This document shows positions 24,788 through 37,125 of a stretch of 64,000 nucleotides of DNA, one piece after another. Numbering within the stretch: position 1 is the first letter of the stretch; the number at the start of each line of letters is the position of its first letter. Location of the stretch: NCBI GenBank assembly GCA_048882045.1, contig JBHLRZ010000007.1, forward strand, positions 32,001 to 96,000, written 5' to 3'. A program made the position numbers and the translations under genes. Below the pieces are notes generated by a model. That model had not been told where the DNA came from, searched no databases, and was given only the letters and a program-made list of their open reading frames with translations. The stretch comes from Candidatus Thorarchaeota archaeon (GTDB taxonomy: Archaea; Asgardarchaeota; Thorarchaeia; Thorarchaeales; Thorarchaeaceae).

Positions 24788-26749
24788 TTGCGAAGAAAGA
24801 TCCTAATTGTCATCATTTTCCTCCTGTCTACTCTAATCCCCTCTCCAATGTTTGACTCAAAATTAGGAAAGGTTGCAGAGGGAGTATCAGGAACCATAGA
24901 GTATCATACCATTGCATATACTCGACATGATCCCATCTACATTGCATCAGACGCAGAATTCATTGCACAGGCTGCTTTAGAAGGGTGGCCTGGGGACGGT
25001 TCAGAGTCCAATCCCTACAGAATTGAAGGCTACAACATTACTCACACGGGATTCATCATCCAAATTGAAAATGTCACTATGTTTTTTGAAATTAGGAACT
25101 GCTACCTGGCTTCAAATTCGTCAGGGGTGCACATCGAAAGCTCCTCAGACTGTGAAGTATATTCCAACGATTTCGATAATGCAAGTATTGAGATATGTGA
25201 CAGCGGTAATTGTGAAATCTATTCAAATGAATTCTATAATGGATCTGAGATACGAATTAACTGTTGTTTTCAAGTTTCGGTATCAGACGTTAGAGTCATT
25301 GCACCATCTGACCAGGGGATACTTGTTAGCAACTCAAGTCACTGCAATATCTCTAATTCCATATTATATTCATCACCAATAGCCGGGATTGTTGCAATGG
25401 ATTCGCTCTCCTGCTCCTTTACTTCCAACACCATATCACATTGTCAGAATGGCATACTAATTTGCAACGATACCTCCTCATCTCTATTTACTAACAACTA
25501 CATATTCAATCAATCAGAGTATGGAATAAAAGTTGAAAGTGGTTCTGATAACTGGATATATGCGAACATCGTAGCTAGTGAAGGAACAGGATTTTTCCTG
25601 GACGATGGTGTTCAGAATCACTGGGATGATGGATTTTTCCTAGGAAACTTTTTGCCTGGAATAACTGAAGGAATCTTTCCCATAGACGGTTCTGCTGGGA
25701 GCGAGGATCAATTTGCAAGGCCAGTAGACCCAGAGCCAGTTGAAGAGCCAGTAATCTGTTCAGATCCGATACTGGTGAAACTCGGTGATTTTGATGGAAT
25801 TCTAGCTTGTGTGGTTTGGCTGAGAGAAGAAACTCGTCTGTATAGGTTTGAGATTATCAGAAACAGATTCTACATAAATGGAGCGTTTGATCGAGATATT
25901 GAATGGTCAGGTCCATGTACTATTGTGATTGATGTAGAGGGTTTGGCTCCAGGTATTTACGAATTCAGCCTATTCCAAGATCTCTGGGTTCCCCCCTTCG
26001 ATGAGGGGGAAATACATCTGTTTGATTTTACAACCTACCTTCCCGGATTTTATTCTCCTATTGATAATGATGCTGATGACATGTTTGATGAATGGGAGAT
26101 TGAGCATGGTCTGGATCCTTTGAGCAATGATAGTGAAGATGATCCCGATAGTGATGATCTCTCCAATCTTCATGAATTTATGTGGAACACTGATCCACAA
26201 AATCCCGATACGGACTCAGACCTCATGCCAGACGGATGGGAAGCTCACTACGACCTGCGACCATGGGTCGATGACTCGGGATTGGATAAAGACTCAGATG
26301 GTTTGTGCAACCTCGATGAGTATCTTCATGGAACGGACCCAGAGGATAGCGACTCAGATTCCGATTCGATAACGGACGGATGGGAGGTGACCTTTGGTCA
26401 AAATCCATTGGATCCCTCTGATGCATTGATAGATTCCGATGCTGATACTCTAACAAATCTCCAAGAGTTTCTACTTGGAACCAATCCAACTAGTCCAGAT
26501 TCTGACTTCGATTCTTATCCTGATGCTTGGGAGGTGCGCTATGGATTCGATCCACTTACCCCTCCTGATACAATGTATGAAGAGATCGCATATTTTGCAC
26601 CTTTCATTATCACTGGATATCTGACTCTTAGTGCCATATCTGTGGTGACAATAGTCATGAATCGAATGGGAAAGATGCTCCTAAAAGAGCAGAGCCAACT
26701 TGATGAAGAGGAAGAGATCAAGCGTCAACTTCAAGCTCTGATGTCTTGA
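24788..26749 (+). CDS. Surface protein: signal peptide, NosD-like parallel beta-helix, TSP3-like Ca-binding repeats, C-terminal TM
   Basis: [16 protein letters not shown], Asn-rich PbH1-like repeats, repeated D-x-D-x-D-x-x-x-[DN]-x-x-E-x-x-x-G-[TL]-[DN]-P. Confidence 0.8.
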
Positions 26750-29361
26750 TCTCTATATTCCTCAGGATTCTTGTCGAAGGTTTCTTTACAGTAAGGATTG
26801 CAGAAGTAGTACCTCTTTCCTTCATAGTCAGAGTAGAGATCAGCGGATGCAATGTCGACTTTCATGTTACAGATTGGGTCGATTGCTACATCTCCCTCAA
26901 GGTAGGCTGCAGGAGGAACTCCTTCTTCCTTTAATTCCACAACCTTAGGCTTAAACCTATTCAGTGTAAGAGCGTTTGCTACAACACTGACACTTGATAG
27001 TGCCATTGCTAGTCCTGCAAATTGCGGCTGAAGATAGAGACCGAGAGTAGGGAAGAGAAGTCCTGCGGCTACTGGAAGGAGAATGATGTTATAGATAAGT
27101 GCCCAGAAGAATCCCTGTTTGATCTTTGTCATTGTCTTCTGACCAAGTTGAATTCCTGTGACAACATCCATGAGGTCATCCTTTACTAGGACAATGTCCC
27201 CTGATTCCACAGAAACATCGGTGCCTGAGCCTAGCGCAATGCCAACATCAGCTTGAGCTAGAGCTATCGCATCATTGACACCATCGCCTGTCATTGCGAC
27301 AATCTTTCCCTGAGCTTGAAGTTTCTTGATTTGTTCTGCCTTCTGATCAGGAAGGACCTCGGCCAATGCATGTTCAATACCAACAGATTCTCCAATCGCT
27401 TTGGCGGTTATCTCCCTGTCACCTGTAATCATCCAGACATCGATACCCATACCTTTGAGTGTACTCACAGCCTCTACCGAGCTTGGTTTCAGATCGTCAG
27501 CAATTGCCAAGACTGCAAGCTGCTTTCCATTGACAGACGCATAGATTACTGTCTTCCCTAGTTGCTGGAATATTTCTGATTGGTCATCAATGTTGGAAAA
27601 GTCCACTCCGAGATCTTTCATGAACTGTTGACTGCCAACAGAAACAGTTTCTCCCTCAACAACTGCACTCACTCCTTTCCCAGTAGTGTATTGGAAATCT
27701 TCTGATTGTGGAAAAGCAATTCCCCTTTCATTGACATAGTAAACAACTGCTTCTGCCAAAGGATGTTCGCTGTTCTTTTCCACCGATGCAATGAGTCGAA
27801 GAGATTCCTCTTCTTTATAGCTCCCCACAGTGATGACATCGGTCACAGTCGGTCTTCCTATGGTGAGAGTTCCAGTCTTATCGAAAACAATTGTATCGAT
27901 TTCTGGGATTATTTCAAGACCATCTCCTGTCTTGATTAGGATTCCATGCTGAGCTCCCTTTCCTATACCAACCATAATTGCAGTAGGAGTGGCGAGTCCC
28001 AGTGCACACGGACAAGCTGCGACCAGAACTGCAATTGTAAAGTTGAGTGCAAGGTCCCATTGAACGTTCATGACGAAGACCCAGAACAGGTATGTGGCAA
28101 TCGAGATGACCAGAACAATGGGCGTAAACACCTCTGCGATTGAGTCTGCCTTTCGCTGGATGGCTGGCTTGTTCGTCTGAGCCTCTTCCACCATTCTGAC
28201 AATCTGTGAGAGGACAGTGTCCTGACCTACCTTGGTAGCCTTGACTCTAAGAACTCCATTCTTATTGACTGTGCCACCTACAACAGAATCGCCCACTGTC
28301 TTATCAACAGCAACCGACTCTCCAGTGATCATCGACTCATCAACCGAGGACTTCCCTTCTAGAACACTTCCATCAACAGGTACTCGATCACCCGGACGAA
28401 CTAGGACAAGATCATCAACTTCGACATCTTCAATGGGTAGAATCAGTTCTTCTCCATTGCGAATCACAGTTGCAACTTTAGCCTGAAGATCCATCAATCC
28501 TCTAATGGCCTTTGATGTGCGTCCTTTTGCAACCGATTCTAATGTGCGACCCAGTAGTATGAATGAGATCAGCAAGACAGCAGCATCATAGAAGGGGGCA
28601 TAGCCAGAAAGGACGAATGTTGTTGCAACCGAGTAACCATAGGCTGCAGTTGTACCCAGCATTACAAGAGTGTCCATATTTGTCTTGAAATGTCGTAATC
28701 CTCTGAGTGCTGCTTTGTAGAACGGGTATCCTCCAATGAACTGAACAGGAGTTGAGAGGAAGAACATCAGTAGCATTTTCGTACTTTCTAGAGGAATCAG
28801 CGCATTAAGTACTCCAAAGTGGATTAGAACTACAGGAATCGTTAGTATCACTGAGAATGTTAAGAGTGTAGCATAATATCGGATTTCTTTTTCTCTTGCG
28901 AGGGATTCTCTATCTCTCTCCACACCCTCACTAGACTCTAATTTGAAACCCAGACTCAGAATTGTCTTCCGAACAATCTTGAAGGTGACCAAATCCTCGT
29001 CGTATTCGATTAGTAGACGTTTTGAATCAGGATAGCTCCTCGCTGTTATTACTCCTTTTATCTGACTAACTGCAGTGGTAATCTCATCCCATTGAGACTC
29101 ACTAGGACTTTCAGAAAGCGTTAAAGTCATCGATGCTCTTCGAGCGCGATAACCAACGGAATCCACAGCCATTTCCAACACAGACCGATCTACTGAATCT
29201 GCGTAATATTCGACAACAGCTTTCTCATCGAGAAGACTTACACTAGCTTTAATCACACCATCTTGAGAAAGCAGTGACTTCTCAATTGTGGCAACACAGG
29301 AAGCACAATGCATTCCTTCAATTTTCATCGAAAGTCTTTCGGGAGTTTCATTTTTGGTCAT
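26731..29361 (-). CDS. copA: Copper-translocating P1B-type ATPase with an N-terminal HMA and a C-terminal YHS/TRASH domain
   Basis: GMHCASC, TGES, CPC, DKTGT, SEHP, GDGVND, YN, MALSS; C-terminal DPICNM...YYFCNPYC. Confidence 0.95.
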
Positions 29362-29387: not shown

Positions 29388-29437
29388 ATTATATCGTTGT
29401 AGATATATAGACGTAGATATATCGGTGTCGATATATA
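29388..29437. promoter_or_regulatory. Operator array upstream of copA: four GATATATC-like boxes at 14-bp period
   Basis: ATTATATC 29388, GATATATA 29402, GATATATC 29416, GATATATA 29430. Confidence 0.75.
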
Positions 29438-29480
29438 AGTTTTTTGATTGGGCGGGTTTGGAAGGAAACCATATTGTCAA

Positions 29481-29951
29481 TTATAAACTCTGTTTGAACG
29501 CTTTTGCACAATGAACACAACAAAAAGTAAGATTTGTTCCATTGACTTCTTCGTAGTGCGCGCCTTCGAAAACCCTAGCTCCACAACTTGCACAAACCTC
29601 TAGGCTGGACCCGAGGGCAGATACTGTGATCGCAGCAAAACGTTTGAATAACTGGTTGCTAAATCGCTCTCCTTTCTTCGTCATTGAATAGACAATCTTA
29701 CGTTTCTTCCCTATGTCTTCTTGCTTCTGGGTGACCAGCTTCTTTTCTTCGAGTTCCTGCAAAAATGGGTATAGTGTTCCTGGACTTAATTTCTTCCCAG
29801 TTCGTTTTTCATAACTTTTCATAAGACCATAACCATGCAATGGCTTTTCGTTCAACATCAACAAGATATAGAAATGCGAGAAATCAGCTAGTATTTCCTG
29901 AATGTCAGGATGGGGCACTTTCATGTCTTGAATTGTTTTTTCATTCGTCAT
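29481..29951 (-). CDS. PadR-family regulator with a C-terminal TRASH metal-binding domain
   Basis: PLHGYGLMK, LSPGTLYPFLQELEEKKLV; CASC...FCCVHC. Confidence 0.9.
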   Translation of the reverse strand: MTNEKTIQDMKVPHPDIQEILADFSHFYILLMLNEKPLHGYGLMKSYEKRTGKKLSPGTLYPFLQELEEKKLVTQKQEDIGKKRKIVYSMTKKGERFSNQLFKRFAAITVSALGSSLEVCASCGARVFEGAHYEEVNGTNLTFCCVHCAKAFKQSL

Positions 29952-30140
29952 TTTTGTGTCAACCCAAGGAAGCTCGAATATTTTGAGTCACACAGATAAG
30001 GAATAAAGAAGTTCCCGTGTGTGACATATAATCCAATCCACGAAGCATTTTCCTATAATAGTTGCCTATTTGATTAAACTCTTCCCGATCATGCCGAGAA
30101 ATGGACTACATTATATGAGATTTTGATGAGTAGCAATATA

Positions 30141-30322
30141 AATGTATCTTAAGGGATATATCCATAGGGATAATTAATGCCTGCTCTCAGGAATCCCACC
30201 GGGGCTCTATCAATGTTAGAAACAGATTTCGGATAAGAAAAGCCAATATAGGGTGCCCGACAGAATATTTATATATATCGAGTGGGATATATCTGATTGG
30301 ATACTATTGTTTGCGATATATC
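30141..30322. promoter_or_regulatory. GATATATC operator arrays in the divergent regulator/YHS-lon intergenic region
   Basis: AATGTATC 30141, GATATATC 30155, GATAATTA 30169; TATATATC 30272, GATATATC 30286, GATACTAT 30300, GATATATC 30315. Confidence 0.72.
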
Positions 30323-30355
30323 TGAAGAGATTTACATAAAGCAGAGGCAAAGGAA

Positions 30356-30511
30356 ATGGCTAGAGACCCAATATGTGGAATGATAGTAGATGAGAACACA
30401 ACCAAGCTAAAGACAGTTCATAAAGGAGAAACTTTCTACTTCTGTATGATGAGCTGCAAGAAAGCCTTTGACAGTGATCCAGATCGCTTTGCCATCGAAT
30501 CCACAAATTAA
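30356..30511 (+). CDS. YHS/TRASH metallochaperone, 51 aa (not in the ORF track)
   Basis: MARDPICGMIVDENTTKLKTVHKGETFYFCMMSCKKAFDSDPDRFAIESTN. Confidence 0.9.
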   Translation: MARDPICGMIVDENTTKLKTVHKGETFYFCMMSCKKAFDSDPDRFAIESTN

Positions 30512-30532
30512 TAATAGAGCAGGAGATTATCT

Positions 30533-32986
30533 ATGAAAAAACTGACACCAGAAGAAATTCGGGTTCGTTGTGATGATAGGGAGTTTGCATGCAGAACTAG
30601 TGCAGAGCTTTTTCCCCTAGATAATATCGTTGGACAGAAACGTGCTCTTGAATCATTGCGATTCGGACTAATGATAAAGGATAAGGGATTCAATGTCTTT
30701 GTTGCGGGTATTCCAGGAACTGGTCGCACCACTGCAGTTTCAAAATTCCTTCAAAATCTTGCAACAAACGAATCGAATGCATCAGATTGGTGCTATGTAA
30801 CCAATTTCGAGAATCAGTATCACCCACGGGCTCTTGAGCTTCCATCAAGTAGAGGGATGCAATTAGAGCAGCAAATGGAGAGCTTCATTGAACTTGCTCA
30901 AATGACGCTTTCTGAGATGCTGGAAAGTGAGGAATATATTATACAAAGAAATCAACTTCTGAAGGTTTTCAAAGACAAACAGCAGGAAATAAGCAATCAA
31001 ATGGAAAATGAAGCACGAAAAAACGGGTTCATATTGCAAGGTTCTAAGACGCGACTACTCTTACTTCCAATAATCAATGGTGAGCCTCTCGATCCTGAAG
31101 CAAACGTCCACCTGCCCAAGGAAATCGAAGAGAAAATCGCAGAAAATCGTGAAGTCGTGGAAAAGCAAATGCGAGTGCTTTTCCGCAAGTTACGTCTTAT
31201 TGAACGTGAACTTCGTGAAGCTCTTCAGAATAAAGAACGAGAAGCTGTGCTTTACGCCCTCTCCCCACTTATTGATGACCTTAAGGAGAACTTCAGGGAT
31301 CTGCCAAGGGTTACACAGTGGATTCAGGAAGTAGCTGAGGATATCACCGAACATCTTCAGGAATTCATCGGACTCTCAGAAGTTGATTCATCAGATGAGC
31401 TGGATTTATCGCAATCGGGATCAATCACACGGGAAGATTTCACTCATAGATATAGAGTGAATCTGTTCGTTGATAATTTGGGAGCAGATGGCGCTCCTGT
31501 TGTAATCCTTGCAAATCCTTCTTATAACAACTTATTTGGTGTAATAGAGAAAGAACCACGATATAGCGGACTTAGAACAGACTTTTCTATGATTCGCCCA
31601 GGAGCCCTGCATAAGGCAAATGGTGGTTATCTAGTTGTTCCAGCACTGGAACTTCTAACTTCTCCACATGTCTATCAATCTTTGAAGAGGGCCCTTGAAC
31701 ATAGCGAGATAGTTATCGAAGAACCTCAGGAATCAAGCAACTTCTTTACTGTGAAGAGTTTACGTCCGGAACCAATCCCATTGGATGTGCAAGTAATTCT
31801 AATTGGCGAGGAAGAGATTTACCAAGAGCTTTACAATAAGGACCCCGAATTTCGGCAACTTTTCAAGGTAAAGGCAGAATTTGACATTTCGATGGATCGC
31901 ACGCCTGAAAACATCCATGTATTTGGCTCGTTCATTTGTATGATTCACTCAAGGGAAGGGCTGAACCCTTTGAAAGCAGACGCCATTGCAGAAGTAATCG
32001 ATTATAGCTCCCGCCTAGCGGAGAATCAAAACAAGCTCTCTATAAGATTTGACATAATAACTGACATCATTCGCGAAGCAAACTTCTATGCGAGCGAAGA
32101 AAAAAGCATCACCATAGAAAGAGATCATATCGAAAAAGCCATCCGTCAAAGATTATACCGATTGAATCTTTATTCAGAGAAGGTTCGTGAGCTCATTAAG
32201 AAGAATATCATTTTTATCGATCTTGAGGGGGAAACTGTAGGACAAGTAAATGGACTTTCGGTGGTCACTCTTGCAGGTCATACTTTTGGACAAACATCTC
32301 GAGTTACAGCTAGTATATCCCCAGGGCACCAGGTTGTAATAGATATTGAACGTGAATCAAATCTTGGTGGTCCGATTCATACAAAAGGAGTACTCATACT
32401 TGCGGGATATCTTGCTAATCGATACGGAAGAGAAAAACCACTTAGTCTTTCTGCGCGGATTGTCTTTGAGCAGAGTTATGGAGGCGTTGAGGGAGATAGT
32501 GCAAGTAGCACAGAACTGTTTGCAATTTTATCTGCTCTTTCAGGAGTACCTATCCAACAGAGATTTGCTGTAACTGGCTCCGTCGATCAACATGGACGAA
32601 TTCAAGCTGTGGGAGGAATTAATGAAAAGATTGAAGGATTTTACGAACTCTGTAAAGCAAAAGGTTTGACCGGGCATCAAGGAGTCTTGATACCAAAAAC
32701 CAATATTCAGAATTTAATGTTATCAGATGAAGTAGTTGAAGCTGTTAGGATGGACTCATTCCACATTTATGCAATAGAAAATGTGGATGAAGGCATTGAA
32801 TTGTTAACTGGTGTACCAGCAGGCAGAAGTCAAGAGAATGGAAACTATTTGCCAGGATCAATTAATGCAATGGTGGATGAGTTTCTGGTTCGAATGGCCA
32901 AAATTATGGAAAAGTATTCTACTGAGAATCACAGCAAACATGAAATCTCTACTACACCACAACAAGTGACGTTCTCTGGAGGCTGA
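30533..32986 (+). CDS. Lon-family S16 protease, LonC/AAA_32 type
   Basis: GIPGTGRTT (Walker A Lys to Arg), GALHKANGGYL, FEQSYGGVEGDSAS (catalytic Ser), GGINEKIEG (catalytic Lys). Confidence 0.92.
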   Translation: MKKLTPEEIRVRCDDREFACRTSAELFPLDNIVGQKRALESLRFGLMIKDKGFNVFVAGIPGTGRTTAVSKFLQNLATNESNASDWCYVTNFENQYHPRALELPSSRGMQLEQQMESFIELAQMTLSEMLESEEYIIQRNQLLKVFKDKQQEISNQMENEARKNGFILQGSKTRLLLLPIINGEPLDPEANVHLPKEIEEKIAENREVVEKQMRVLFRKLRLIERELREALQNKEREAVLYALSPLIDDLKENFRDLPRVTQWIQEVAEDITEHLQEFIGLSEVDSSDELDLSQSGSITREDFTHRYRVNLFVDNLGADGAPVVILANPSYNNLFGVIEKEPRYSGLRTDFSMIRPGALHKANGGYLVVPALELLTSPHVYQSLKRALEHSEIVIEEPQESSNFFTVKSLRPEPIPLDVQVILIGEEEIYQELYNKDPEFRQLFKVKAEFDISMDRTPENIHVFGSFICMIHSREGLNPLKADAIAEVIDYSSRLAENQNKLSIRFDIITDIIREANFYASEEKSITIERDHIEKAIRQRLYRLNLYSEKVRELIKKNIIFIDLEGETVGQVNGLSVVTLAGHTFGQTSRVTASISPGHQVVIDIERESNLGGPIHTKGVLILAGYLANRYGREKPLSLSARIVFEQSYGGVEGDSASSTELFAILSALSGVPIQQRFAVTGSVDQHGRIQAVGGINEKIEGFYELCKAKGLTGHQGVLIPKTNIQNLMLSDEVVEAVRMDSFHIYAIENVDEGIELLTGVPAGRSQENGNYLPGSINAMVDEFLVRMAKIMEKYSTENHSKHEISTTPQQVTFSGG

Positions 32987-33885
32987 TGAGTATGACTAAG
33001 CAAAATATCCTCATCAAGAATCTGGAGGGATTGAACAAATCCATCTTCTTTAGAACAATGATAGCCCCATTAGAACCTCAGATAATAAAGCAGGAAGTAG
33101 TACAATCTGAGCACTTCATAGATTCCGACATCATCGTCGAGTTTCTAGAAAATCGTACATACTTGCCTGAGTTTGACTATATCGGTTATGAAGTAAAAAC
33201 TGTTGATCGTGTTAACGCAGTATATTTAATGATAAATCCAGATCCATTGAATCTTGATTATGTACCAAAAAACAGTCTGGTTATTTGCCATCACAAAATT
33301 TCTACTCACAATAATCGTATCTACAAAAAAATGCTTGACCACGCAAGAAATTCAAAATTCAACATTTACAACTTCCACCTGGGGTGGGATATTATGGAAG
33401 GTGGAATCTTAGATTCATTTCTGTTTGACTTTGGATTATCTCATCATGATTTCGAAAAGGTTGATCTTACATATCGAGGTTATCTAATTCCTCAATTAGG
33501 AGCTATATTCAAAAAAAGGTTAACAATGGAGGACATAATTAACAGACTTTACATGATGAATGTCCAGCTATCAGTTATCATTAATCCACAATGCAAGGCA
33601 TCCAAGGTTGGATACATACCTGGTGGTGGTTTTGTTGATGATATGGTCATAGAAATGGCGGATTTAGGTGTCGATGTTCTCATTTCATCAGACCATAATT
33701 GGGTAGTTGAAACTATTGCCAGAGAGGAAAGGATGACCCTAATTGAGATTGACCATTATCGCAGTGAACGTCATGGTTTACGAACAATGAAGAACCTCCT
33801 TGAGAACTCATTTTCAAACATTCCCATCAATATCCTAGAGAATGTTGATGGAATGGAACGAGCTCCATGCGATTGTAATTCTTGA
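32986..33885 (+). CDS. Nif3-like dinuclear metal-centre protein (divergent)
   Basis: CHH, FHLGWD, PGGG, IDHYRSE; start overlaps the lon stop. Confidence 0.75.
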   Translation: MSMTKQNILIKNLEGLNKSIFFRTMIAPLEPQIIKQEVVQSEHFIDSDIIVEFLENRTYLPEFDYIGYEVKTVDRVNAVYLMINPDPLNLDYVPKNSLVICHHKISTHNNRIYKKMLDHARNSKFNIYNFHLGWDIMEGGILDSFLFDFGLSHHDFEKVDLTYRGYLIPQLGAIFKKRLTMEDIINRLYMMNVQLSVIINPQCKASKVGYIPGGGFVDDMVIEMADLGVDVLISSDHNWVVETIAREERMTLIEIDHYRSERHGLRTMKNLLENSFSNIPINILENVDGMERAPCDCNS

Positions 33886-34003
33886 GGAATAAACATCCAA
33901 GAAGAACTGTCGTTGGTTAGAATTTAGTGTTAAATAGCGAAGTCTTGTTGCATGTTGGCTCAAACATACCTCTTCTATGATCGTTTCTTCAATTTACTCA
34001 TTT

Positions 34004-34903
34004 CTAATCCATCTTTGATTGAACTCTCTTCGCCCGAACGATCTTTACATTAACAATAATGTGGCTAGGGTTGATACGTTCCTGATTCTTGGTTTTAATG
34101 TAATAGAGTAAAATCAACAAGATATATCCAACATATGCAATGACCTCAATGGCTGAAGGATTCCCATTGTAACCGAATAGAGCTTTTGCGAGTCCACCAA
34201 TAAGACCTTTCTCATGCAAAAGTGGATAACTGCCATCTGGTAATAATGGAGGATTGATGTTCCAAAGTTCACTTGGACCTAAGGCTAAGAAACCTACTTC
34301 TTGAAGCTCATGAATACCATAGGCAATCATTCCAGCGGCAAATAATACCAAAAGGAAAGAAGTTGAATTGAAGAATGATTTTAGACTGATTCGTAATGAG
34401 CCTTGATAGATTCCAAATCCGACGAAGGCTGCGAATATTAACCCCAAGGCTACTGCAATAAAAGTCGTATAGCCTTCTTGGATTGCTAATGCAGCTGAGA
34501 ACAGGACTAATTCAACGCCCTCCCGCAAAACAAGAGCAAAAGCAAGAATGGGTAGACCGAGTTTCCCTCCCACAGTCCTCTCCTCAACGGATTGTCTGAT
34601 TTCTGTGGTTAGGTTTGTACTCGCCTTTCTCATCCAGAATATCATAGAAGTCAGGAGAAATGCAGCAAATAAAACAAGTGACCCCTCAAAGACCTCCAGC
34701 ATTGGTCCTTCAAATGACCCCCAAATCACCCCCAGCACAGAAGCTAATCCGATACTTGTGATTATTGCAAGTAATGTGCCGCTGATGATGCTACGATTCA
34801 TATTCTCTCTGCCAGTCTTGCGAAGATAAGAGAACATTATTGCAATGACAAGAGCAGCTTCAATACCTTCACGCAGTGCAACAATGAATGGTGCAATGAA
34901 CAT
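34004..34903 (-). CDS. FTR1/EfeU family iron permease
   Basis: Two RExxE motifs (LREGIE, LREGVE), GIHELQE, LFGY. Confidence 0.92.
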   Translation of the reverse strand: MFIAPFIVALREGIEAALVIAIMFSYLRKTGRENMNRSIISGTLLAIITSIGLASVLGVIWGSFEGPMLEVFEGSLVLFAAFLLTSMIFWMRKASTNLTTEIRQSVEERTVGGKLGLPILAFALVLREGVELVLFSAALAIQEGYTTFIAVALGLIFAAFVGFGIYQGSLRISLKSFFNSTSFLLVLFAAGMIAYGIHELQEVGFLALGPSELWNINPPLLPDGSYPLLHEKGLIGGLAKALFGYNGNPSAIEVIAYVGYILLILLYYIKTKNQERINPSHIIVNVKIVRAKRVQSKMD

Positions 34904-35062
34904 TATAGAATCCCCCTATCATGGAATATTCCTACTCGTCTAGCAGAAATTGACTTCGGAGAATGCCACATAACATAATGTCTATGCTTCTCTAGTCTAT
35001 AGATAAACGATATAGAAGACCCATTGATTTCCTTTTTTGGATCCACAACTCTGCTCATGAGT

Positions 35063-35455
35063 TCAACCTCCTCCTGTACCAACCAAAAATACGATTGTGT
35101 CACCTTCATCGAGTCTTCTATTCATTTTTTCTTTTGAATCGAGTCCCATTCTTAGTTTCCAACCCGTTACGATTATTTTCCCATTAACTATGATTATTGT
35201 TTCATTACTGAGGGTTTTGCTTTTCTTCTCGTCTAGATACGCATCCAATGAATAAACAAACTCACTCATCAAGTGATCAATGAGATCAGTGAGCGAAGTT
35301 CCTTCTTGAATATGAAGTGGAAATTTGTTATAGTTTGATTCTCTTAGGCCCCTATTCAACAGCTTAATGAAGACTTGAATCACTGAGTTTTTCCCCTTCG
35401 ATAGTTTTTGTCTAGAATACAACTTTGGCTTGTTGTAAATTTTCGAGAGTGTCAT
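35063..35455 (-). CDS. MoaD/ThiS/SAMP ubiquitin-like beta-grasp protein
   Basis: IIIVNG...LDEGDTIVFLVGTGGG with terminal GG; basic N-terminal extension. Confidence 0.8.
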   Translation of the reverse strand: MTLSKIYNKPKLYSRQKLSKGKNSVIQVFIKLLNRGLRESNYNKFPLHIQEGTSLTDLIDHLMSEFVYSLDAYLDEKKSKTLSNETIIIVNGKIIVTGWKLRMGLDSKEKMNRRLDEGDTIVFLVGTGGG

Positions 35456-35486
35456 ATTGTAGAATTCCTTCTTTGATATGCATCTC

Positions 35487-35672
35487 TTAGCCGCAGCAAC
35501 CTCGTCGGGGTATTGCTACTATTCTACGCTGTGAATAGAAATCGGGGGAATCATCAAAACTTGTTTTGCATGACTGCTTGCAGAAATAGTATCTTTTTCC
35601 CATGTAGTCAGAATAATACTTAGTTACGTTTTCGTTAACCTCTAATCCACAAACTGGATCTTTTACCATCAT
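35487..35672 (-). CDS. YHS/TRASH protein with a C-terminal GCCG tail
   Basis: KDPVCGLEV...YMGKRYYFCKQSCK...RRGCCG. Confidence 0.9.
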   Translation of the reverse strand: MMVKDPVCGLEVNENVTKYYSDYMGKRYYFCKQSCKTSFDDSPDFYSQRRIVAIPRRGCCG

Positions 35673-35793
35673 TATATCACCTTCAGTTCCAGTTCTACTC
35701 TTGTGCTTTCAATATTCAAGATCTTGGTTAACGAGCATTGCCATCAAATAGGCCAATTGTTCACCCAATCTCTTGATTCTATATTACCACAAG

Positions 35794-35871
35794 GATATAT
35801 CGGAACTGTATTATTATGGCACGCTTCAGCTTATAAATATATCGTGTTAGATATATCTTGCATGATATATA
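35794..35871. promoter_or_regulatory. GATATATC operator array upstream of the YHS-SAMP-FTR1 genes
   Basis: GATATATC 35794, AATATATC 35836, GATATATC 35850, GATATATA 35864; all in 14-bp phase. Confidence 0.75.
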
Positions 35872-35964
35872 ATTGCGTTAGTAATTCAAAAGAAAAAAGA
35901 GAGAGAAGTGGGAATCTTCTCCCGCCCATTTAAAAATTGCACAATAATCCTTAGGCTAAGGTCC

Positions 35965-36117
35965 TTACTCTTCAATTCCCACTTCTAGATTGTATTTCTC
36001 AGGATTGGCATCAAACATCTTCTTATGCTCTGAGTTCATAAAGTAGTAGGTCTTGCCCTTATAGACAGATTTGATGTTTGGTTTACCCATCATACCGCAA
36101 ACGGGACATTTTGACAT
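35965..36117 (-). CDS. YHS/TRASH variant, 50 aa (not in the ORF track)
   Basis: MSKCPVCGMMGKPNIKSVYKGKTYYFMNSEHKKMFDANPEKYNLEVGIEE; GGTGA RBS upstream. Confidence 0.88.
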   Translation of the reverse strand: MSKCPVCGMMGKPNIKSVYKGKTYYFMNSEHKKMFDANPEKYNLEVGIEE

Positions 36118-36193
36118 TTTTTCTTCACCATGTGTCCAGATCATCTATTCCCATTCAGGATATAGAGTACCCACCAATTGGAGGGCACTCCCA

Positions 36194-36285
36194 TTTATAT
36201 CCATAGAGATATATCGTAGACGACTATGTCAATGCCACAAGCAAATATAAATCTATCGTACTAGATATATCCAAGCGGATTTATT
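36194..36285. promoter_or_regulatory. GATATATC operator array upstream of the variant YHS gene
   Basis: TTTATATC 36194, GATATATC 36208, GACTATGT 36222, AATCTATC 36250, GATATATC 36264, GATTTATT 36278; all in 14-bp phase. Confidence 0.75.
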
Positions 36286-36378: not shown

Positions 36379-36966
36379 CTAGCCAACGAAGTATTCGCTT
36401 TCCTTCTCATTCGCAGCTTCACTCATCATTCTTAGAAGCTCATGAAAGGTGTCCTGAATATTAGCCCCAGTCCTTGCAGAGGTTTCTCGGAATATTGCTG
36501 GGACTCCGAGTTTGTTGATGAAGTACTGTGTGAATGCCTGACCTTCTTCTGGAGTTACATACTTTTTCTTGTCGAGACTCGTTCTCAGATCTATCTTGTT
36601 ACCGATAATTACAGTTGGTGGAAGTGGCCCCATGTTCCTAAAAGCTTCAACCAGCCATTTAGAGGCATTATCAAATGACTCACGATCGATTACAGAATAC
36701 ACAAGTAGGATTCCGTTGCAGCCAGCATAATAATGACCTCGCACTTTCTCGAAAGTCGGCTGACCTGCCAGGTCCCAAATGATGAACTTGACAACATCCT
36801 GCTCGAACAACACACGCTTGGTAGCGAGGTCGACACCGATTGTGGCAAGGTGTCCCTCGATGAAGTCCTCTCCAAGATAATTGCGTCTGATACTTGTCTT
36901 TCCGACAGCTCCGTCTCCAATAAGGACTGCTTTCATGATTTTGCTGCCGTCGTCTTGGTCTCGCAT
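36379..36966 (-). CDS. Rab-like small GTPase
   Basis: GDGAVGKTS, TIGVDL, WDLAGQ, NKID, ETSAR. Confidence 0.93.
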   Translation of the reverse strand: MRDQDDGSKIMKAVLIGDGAVGKTSIRRNYLGEDFIEGHLATIGVDLATKRVLFEQDVVKFIIWDLAGQPTFEKVRGHYYAGCNGILLVYSVIDRESFDNASKWLVEAFRNMGPLPPTVIIGNKIDLRTSLDKKKYVTPEEGQAFTQYFINKLGVPAIFRETSARTGANIQDTFHELLRMMSEAANEKESEYFVG

Positions 36967-37125
36967 GTCGTGGATCTCCTCAGTACCTTGTTGGCGTGAT
37001 GTAGTTCACAAGCCCTCCCGAATAATGTGACTACAGAAAATGCAAAGCTTGGTGCAAGATAAGGTTAATGTTCTAGAACCAAAAAGAGCTTGTGATAGGA
37101 ATCCCCATCAAACATCATGTGATGG

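Follow-up and report, generated by a model that had tools for sequence, protein, structure and literature searches.

Which protein reads the short palindromic boxes that line the promoters of a copper-handling gene island in an uncultured Asgard archaeon, and in what arrangement does it bind them? The question is raised by a 64,000-nucleotide stretch of a Candidatus Thorarchaeota genome (3.6 Mb, 93 contigs; the stretch, hereafter the window, is C7:32001-96000), in which the palindrome GATATATC and its close variants precede the copper ATPase gene copA, three genes for small YHS-domain proteins and padR, the gene for a regulator that joins a PadR domain to a TRASH domain (PadR-TRASH). An earlier note on this DNA proposed that dimers of PadR-TRASH coat these promoters as a cooperative filament. 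Our data lead us to a reading that keeps the regulator and replaces the filament: with a probability of about 0.75 the PadR-TRASH protein of the island has its operator in these boxes; it would act as a copper-released repressor, and its likely unit of binding is an inverted repeat formed between neighbouring boxes.

The boxes are a local feature of the island

Eighteen of the box positions listed in the earlier note match GATATATC at no more than two mismatches. Eight are exact (29416, 30155, 30286, 30315, 35794, 35850, 36208 and 36264), five have one mismatch (29402, 29430, 30272, 35836 and 35864) and five have two (29388, 30141, 36194, 36250 and 36278). Further positions did not stand: 30169 and 30300, with three and four mismatches respectively, keep the inner GATA alone, and 36222, with six, is rejected as a box. 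The accompanying claim, that every promoter of the island is so equipped, held: all five inferred transcription units – copA, padR, YHS1-Lon-NIF3, YHS2-p130-(FTR1) and YHS3 – have an array.

The core of the box is TATATA and the arrays overlap TATA-like elements, which is what would be seen if they were generic AT-rich promoter sequence (repeated TATA boxes) or the product of chance. However, the G and C ends of the boxes are conserved, as is their exact spacing. The window contains 11 exact copies of GATATATC against 1.16 expected, a count reached in none of 100 shuffles; the whole genome contains 90 against 83 expected, and the enrichment in the window is therefore local. Apart from a 2-bp AT-shift, 14 bp is the most frequent spacing between boxes (at most one mismatch), with seven such pairs genome-wide, five of which fall within four intergenic regions of the island. 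In these regions (1049 bp) 13 boxes and five 14-bp pairs are observed, whereas first-order Markov resamples of the same regions yield 2.06 boxes and 0.001 pairs. Nor are motif and phasing equally common in AT-rich DNA at large, the outcome that the earlier note would have taken as a refutation: among 2149 AT-rich (at least 62%) segments of 120 bp outside the island, none holds a 14-bp pair. Genome count, spacing, resampling and controls thus refute an origin in base composition or chance, to which we give practically no weight.

Pairs elsewhere in the genome were considered and set aside. The 14-bp pair at C2:43507 and the 42-bp pair at C5:145604 lie inside long open reading frames and look like chance; the pair at C35:12782 proved to be the promoter of a PadR paralogue without TRASH.

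Overlapping dyads rather than a filament

A central issue is the nature of the unit that is bound. The earlier note observed that adjacent boxes create overlapping ATATC-N6-GATAT dyads, and this observation is supported. Chains of such dyads were gathered from the window and from 80 related loci (labelled from L001 onwards) encoding PadR-TRASH homologues: 52 chains comprise two dyads, ten comprise three and one comprises four, and the step between adjacent N6 dyads is 14 bp in 69 of 75 pairs and 16 bp in five. This collection is selected on the inner arms; the asymmetry of the boxes was analysed from 99 perfect boxes, with no condition placed on their neighbours. Fourteen bp away the neighbour reads GATATAT (G in 87%) and its outer C is not kept (A is commonest, 41%), so that terminal boxes are asymmetric at the outer C/G and not in their AT part. 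At +28 around the same 99 boxes there is no conservation.

The usual element is thus (AT)ATATC-N6-GATATATC-N6-GATAT(AT): two inverted repeats that have one perfect palindrome in common. Four arrays of the window show this two-dyad pattern (30141-30176, 30272-30307, 35836-35871 and 36250-36285). Among clade-2 Thorarchaeota the central box can be GATATATATC, with the arms abutting; a further variant has two N6 dyads at a distance of 28 bp, separated by an N4 gap.

These features bear directly on the filament, in which PadR-TRASH dimers would polymerise cooperatively along in-phase boxes, coat whole promoters and keep their phase across gaps. The prevalence of the 14-bp step, the four boxes at copA and the gaps of 42 and 56 bp in the window, both multiples of 14, are all as such a structure would have them. 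But the claim of phase across gaps is only partly true: in orthologous promoters the distances corresponding to these two gaps are 41 or 42 and 54-56 bp, and a 29-bp gap is conserved although off-phase. Long-range phase is therefore not a conserved feature. Steps of 16 bp and N4-gap arrangements are tolerated, the modal array consists of two dyads, and most loci from Bathyarchaeia have a single dyad. Given the missing signal at +28 and the variable distances across gaps, a pair or trio of dimers fits better than a filament-like coat, which is not borne out and which we regard as improbable. The binding unit is probably the inverted repeat ATATC-N6-GATAT, whose geometry resembles that of PadR operators.

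The dyad follows the PadR-TRASH gene

Evidence that these dyads belong to PadR-TRASH comes from the 80 related loci, which span Thor-, Hermod-, Prometh- and Heimdallarchaeota together with Bathyarchaeia. In 65 of them the 300 bp before the PadR-TRASH gene contain a dyad, against 0.054 expected per locus from background density. The spacer is N6 in 32 loci, all from Asgard archaea or unclassified archaeal metagenome-assembled genomes (MAGs), and N7 in another 32, mainly from Bathyarchaeia. Arrays stand upstream of orthologues of PadR in 36 cases, CopA in 25, YHS in 15, Lon in three and NIF3 in two, and the conserved core of the predicted regulon is copA plus YHS. From the placement before the gene's own start we infer that PadR-TRASH is the likely binder and that autoregulation, as the earlier note suggested, is likely too.

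Another factor might nevertheless read the boxes, with the link to PadR-TRASH being one of synteny alone. Candidates are three PadR paralogues of this genome that lack TRASH, each of which has ATATC-N6-GATAT in its own upstream region: a single dyad at C35:12785-12800, a tandem with a 12-bp step around GATATC boxes at C50:16404-16443, and two dyads 22 bp apart at C13:9771-9808. The half-site is thus not unique to PadR-TRASH and seems to be common to a PadR clade of this lineage. The recurrence of the dyad in such differing arrangements also speaks for the dyad as the unit. Genome-wide, ten of the 19 perfect dyads are PadR-linked, and about 6.5 perfect dyads are expected by chance from base-composition arithmetic. 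Yet the dyad tracks the PadR-TRASH gene over two phyla, being found in the promoter of that gene in 65 of 80 loci, and triple boxes with extended arms occur nowhere in the genome but in the island and at one site on contig C75 (six and one, respectively, of the seven double-dyad elements in the genome). We therefore consider it very improbable that a different factor is the reader.

The exception, at C75:3164-3222 (locus L081, from the genome that contains the window), reads ATTATATC-N6-GATATATC-N6-GAGAT, then ATTTATATA, then ATTATC-N6-GATATATC. It lies directly downstream of a TehB/TPMT-like methyltransferase gene and upstream of an operon for a 78-aa membrane protein, a zinc-ribbon protein and a PEMT/ICMT-like methyltransferase; from its array this operon is a candidate extra member of the regulon.

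Two observations concern the loci themselves. In one MAG, LCG1B.521, there are two paralogues of PadR-TRASH (L003 and L009), which share 88% and 61% identity with the protein in the window and each have their own arrays. PadR-TRASH also occurs on contigs labelled Firmicutes bacterium UBA3567 and Latescibacterota (L076 and L079), the first with an N7 operator of the Bathyarchaeia type upstream of the gene; both are probably archaeal contigs binned into bacterial MAGs.

The regulator

The protein encoded at 29481-29951 matches PadR (PF03551) over residues 29-97 with 58.1 bits against a cut-off of 27. Its match to Pfam Ta0938 scores 27.5 bits (cut-off 27), and that to TRASH_HVO_1752_C (20.6) falls under the cut-off of 27. 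The C-terminal domain reads C120-x2-C123-x20-C144-C145-x-H147-C148, and the TRASH signature within it (C-X2-C-X19-22-C-X3-C, here C120-x2-C123-x20-C144-x3-C148) is invariant in an alignment of 25 homologues. The homologues closest to the regulator, 88-92% identical, come from Thorarchaeota MAGs. The genome has a single PadR-TRASH gene.

A winged helix-turn-helix occupies residues 15-90 and is followed by a long helix, residues 92-112. In the AlphaFold2 model (predicted local distance difference test score, 81) helices span residues 15-35, 40-51, 57-69 and 92-112 and strands 73-80 and 83-90. Foldseek matched the model to LmrR, Rv3488 and TA0346 with template modelling scores (target) of about 0.8. 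As modelled, the fold is that of PadR subfamily 2, with the long C-terminal helix as putative dimerisation helix. A family search of the regulator returned no Lrp/AsnC match; its helix-turn-helix matches were PadR and other winged-helix models. A sequence search of solved structures returned plain PadR proteins and no TRASH fusion. Binding of Cu(I) or another metal by the TRASH cysteines is suggested by the domain signature and by analogy with the literature on the archaeal copper regulator CopR.

Promoter context and the sign of regulation

Start codons across the genome are preceded by a strong Shine-Dalgarno peak (-11 to -13) and, further upstream, by TATA-like words that begin between -35 and -65. 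Leaderless transcripts are thereby rejected as the rule; mRNAs with leaders are the rule instead. At copA (CTTATATATC) and YHS1 (TTTATATATATC) the first arm is itself TATA-like, while at padR, YHS2 and YHS3 the last arm continues directly into ATTTATA(T/A); every array therefore overlaps or abuts the position of the TATA box and the transcription factor B recognition element (BRE). At N7 loci a TATA box (ATATAAATATATC) merges with the left arm at a distance of 34-57 bp from the padR ATG, and the dyad therefore spans the region from TATA to start.

For the sign of regulation and the metal, we infer repression relieved by copper. One PadR dimer would read the 16-20-bp sequence (AT)ATATC-N6-GATAT(AT) by placing a recognition helix in each of two successive major grooves. 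Two such dyads, sometimes three, overlap at a 14-bp step in Thorarchaeota, and this overlap would create the perfect central GATATATC palindrome and leave the outer boxes half-degenerate. Without metal, two or three dimers per array would block TBP/TFB or RNA polymerase at copA, at the three YHS chaperone-like genes, at LonC-NIF3, probably at the FTR1 operon, and at padR itself. Binding of Cu(I) or Ag(I) to the cysteines of the C-terminal TRASH domain would then lower the affinity for DNA and derepress the regulon. Copper is favoured by CopA, which has the CPC/YN/MxxSS signature of Cu(I)/Ag(I) transport, and by a predicted regulon whose conserved core is copA and YHS.

Several points weigh against this scheme. 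The half-site centres in the shared central box are 3 bp apart, and simultaneous occupancy of both dyads may clash sterically. The right-hand box of N7 loci forms a complete palindrome even in the absence of a clear third box, and for this reason the 8-mer itself may matter. Cross-binding by the PadR paralogues, which use the same half-sites, is possible. FTR1, Lon and NIF3 are not classic copper genes, and a different thiophilic metal, or a redox signal, may be what is sensed. Finally, the arrays at padR, YHS2 and YHS3 lie upstream of the best TATA-like element.

This last point bears on the sign of regulation. CopR of Pyrococcus furiosus binds directly upstream of the BRE and activates copA (PMC7830388), and the resemblance in placement keeps an activating or dual role alive as a rival: metal-loaded PadR-TRASH, bound just upstream of BRE/TATA, would recruit TBP/TFB at the copA and YHS promoters, and would repress at promoters whose TATA box precedes the array. 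The three arrays in question end 0-2 bp before a canonical TTTATA(T/A)T, an arrangement kept in L001-L008. But their last arm overlaps the position of the BRE and is not upstream of it, and at copA and YHS1 here, as in most padR promoters of other loci, it is the first arm that is TATA-like, with the array running on downstream. PadR proteins, moreover, are known as repressors. We thus judge activation or a dual role unlikely, if still a live competitor, and prefer copper-released repression.

Relation to known systems

The closest parallel is CopR (P. furiosus PF0739, PMC7830388), also a TRASH-bearing factor whose gene lies beside copA. CopR combines an Lrp/AsnC-type helix-turn-helix with TRASH, binds the core promoters of copR and copA, is autoregulated and responds to copper; its motif is TTNNCAWWWTGNNAA and about 150 bp of DNA are wrapped (PMC7830388). 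For PadR-TRASH, adjacency to copA and predicted sites at the copA promoter and its own are read here from sequence. The proteins differ in that PadR-TRASH has a PadR winged helix in place of Lrp and lacks the octamer-forming RAM domain, and its predicted operator consists of short overlapping ATATC-N6-GATAT dyads.

With the PadR subfamily-2 proteins LmrR, bcPadR1/2 and Rv3488 (PMC3506622) PadR-TRASH would share the fold, the C-terminal dimerisation helix, an inverted repeat (about 16 bp) whose arms are one turn of the helix apart, and autoregulation. Helices placed in successive major grooves recognise the canonical PadR operator, ATGT-N8-ACAT (PMC3506622). The 5-6-5, 16-bp arrangement found here (16-17 bp with N7) has the same geometry. 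The arms themselves do not follow the canonical ATGT-N8-10-ACAT, being ATATC and GATAT with N6 or N7 between them; further differences are the appended TRASH domain, the arraying of dyads with shared arms, and a setting of archaeal TATA/BRE elements instead of -35/-10.

Overlapping inverted repeats are also found in the Fur box and in the operators of DtxR and IdeR, where two dimers can bind to a single compact site from different faces of the DNA. There the offset is about 6 bp and metal promotes binding; here the protein family is unrelated, the offset is 14 bp and metal is proposed to release the protein. The met boxes of MetJ, like the boxes described here, are tandem 8-bp palindromes; they occur in two to five copies, abut one another and are bound cooperatively, with one ribbon-helix-helix dimer per box. 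In the island, by contrast, the boxes are separated by N6 and the dyad between boxes is the likely unit.

In the literature searched, no paper was found on regulators combining PadR and TRASH or on GATATATC. What is added here is unbiased evidence for dyads over a filament, the split between N6 and N7 spacers, the dyads at the promoters of PadR paralogues, and the promoter context of each array. Asgard archaea and Bathyarchaeia are almost all uncultured, and to our knowledge hardly any of their transcription factors has a known site; the predicted regulator-operator pair is defined by sequence and by conservation over two phyla, which is enough for direct testing. If correct, it would place a second architecture, PadR plus TRASH, beside Lrp plus TRASH, the only type of archaeal copper sensor so far characterised. 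It would further offer a functional lead, based on regulon membership, for LonC-type proteases, NIF3 and small YHS proteins, and a compact natural case of overlapping-dyad operators on an archaeal TATA/BRE promoter.

A wider proposal, which we advance tentatively and at less than even odds, is that PadR-TRASH proteins form a widespread, experimentally unstudied class of archaeal metal sensors in Asgard archaea and Bathyarchaeia. Their operator would comprise overlapping dyads at a fixed step of 14 or 15 bp, on which successive dimers share one palindromic box and are rotated by about 120 degrees around the helix; metal on the TRASH tails would switch the multi-dimer complex on or off the TATA/BRE. 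In Thorarchaeota this would tie LonC, NIF3 and FTR1 to copper stress as well.

Arrays at the individual promoters

The copA array (29388-29437) comprises four boxes, ATTATATC, GATATATA, GATATATC and GATATATA, which form three overlapping dyads starting at 29391, 29405 and 29419. On the gene strand it extends from -76 to -27 relative to the copA ATG, with TATA-like sequence at either end; in L004-L012 the arrays of copA orthologues are 31-47 bp from the copA start.

The padR array (30141-30176) reads AATTATC-N6-GATATATC-N6-GATAC on the minus strand and runs directly into the TATA-like element ATTTATATT; its distance from the padR ATG is about 190-225 bp. Nine orthologous promoters (the window and L001-L008) have array and TATA-like element unchanged, while their leaders and flanks have diverged. 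The roughly 160-190 bp between the TATA-like element and the start codon (29952-30135, minus strand) contain blocks such as AGGCAACTATTATAGGAA that are conserved in L001-L005, L007 and L008; possible readings of this region are a long leader, a second promoter and an RNA element. A search for small open reading frames in the long leaders of padR, YHS2 and YHS3 found none convincing.

The promoter of YHS1-Lon-NIF3 (30272-30322, plus strand) has TTTATATATATC-N6-GATATATC-N6-GATAC, in which TTTATATATATC is a TATA-like element fused to the first arm, and then a further GATATATC at 30315. This extra box is 29 bp from the central box, and the 29 + 14 pattern is kept in L001, L002 and L004. Arrays lie within about 260 bp of the starts of Lon/NIF3 orthologues in L001, L002, L004 and L008, the Lon orthologues being probably reached through an intervening YHS1 gene.

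The YHS2 operon is preceded by AATTATATATC-N6-GATATATC-N6-GATATATTTATAAG (35836-35871, minus strand); a lone perfect box at 35794, 42 bp from 35836, extends the feature to 35794-35871. Two arrays precede YHS3, both read on the minus strand: one perfect dyad at 36194-36215, and two dyads at 36250-36285 that are followed on the gene strand by ATTTATATT. Their central boxes are 56 bp apart in the window and 54-55 bp apart in orthologues.

Genes of the island

The copA gene (26731-29361, minus strand) encodes a CopA-type P1B-1 Cu(I)/Ag(I) ATPase, which has an N-terminal HMA domain, a C-terminal YHS domain and the signatures CPC, YN and MALSS (MxxSS). The gene for the 156-aa PadR-TRASH regulator (29481-29951), assigned from Pfam, alignment, the AlphaFold2 model and Foldseek, is on the same strand. 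On the plus strand family searches identify YHS1 (30356-30511), a LonB/LonC-like AAA protease (30533-32986) and NIF3 (32986-33885), an inferred single operon (30356-33885).

A second inferred operon (34004-35672, minus strand) comprises YHS2 (35487-35672), an open reading frame for a 130-aa protein (35063-35455) and an FTR1 permease (34004-34903), YHS2 and FTR1 again being identified by family search. FTR1 is its least certain member because a 159-bp gap without boxes precedes it, and it may have its own unregulated promoter. A 68-aa open reading frame at 34903-35109, which overlaps the end of the 130-aa frame by 47 nt in another frame and has zero family matches, is probably not a gene. YHS3 (35965-36144, minus strand), a small YHS-domain protein by family search, has its own arrays. 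Adjoining the island is a gene for a Ras-family small GTPase (36379-36966), whose upstream interval (36967-37125) has no boxes; the presence of a GTPase of this family beside the island agrees with an Asgard origin.

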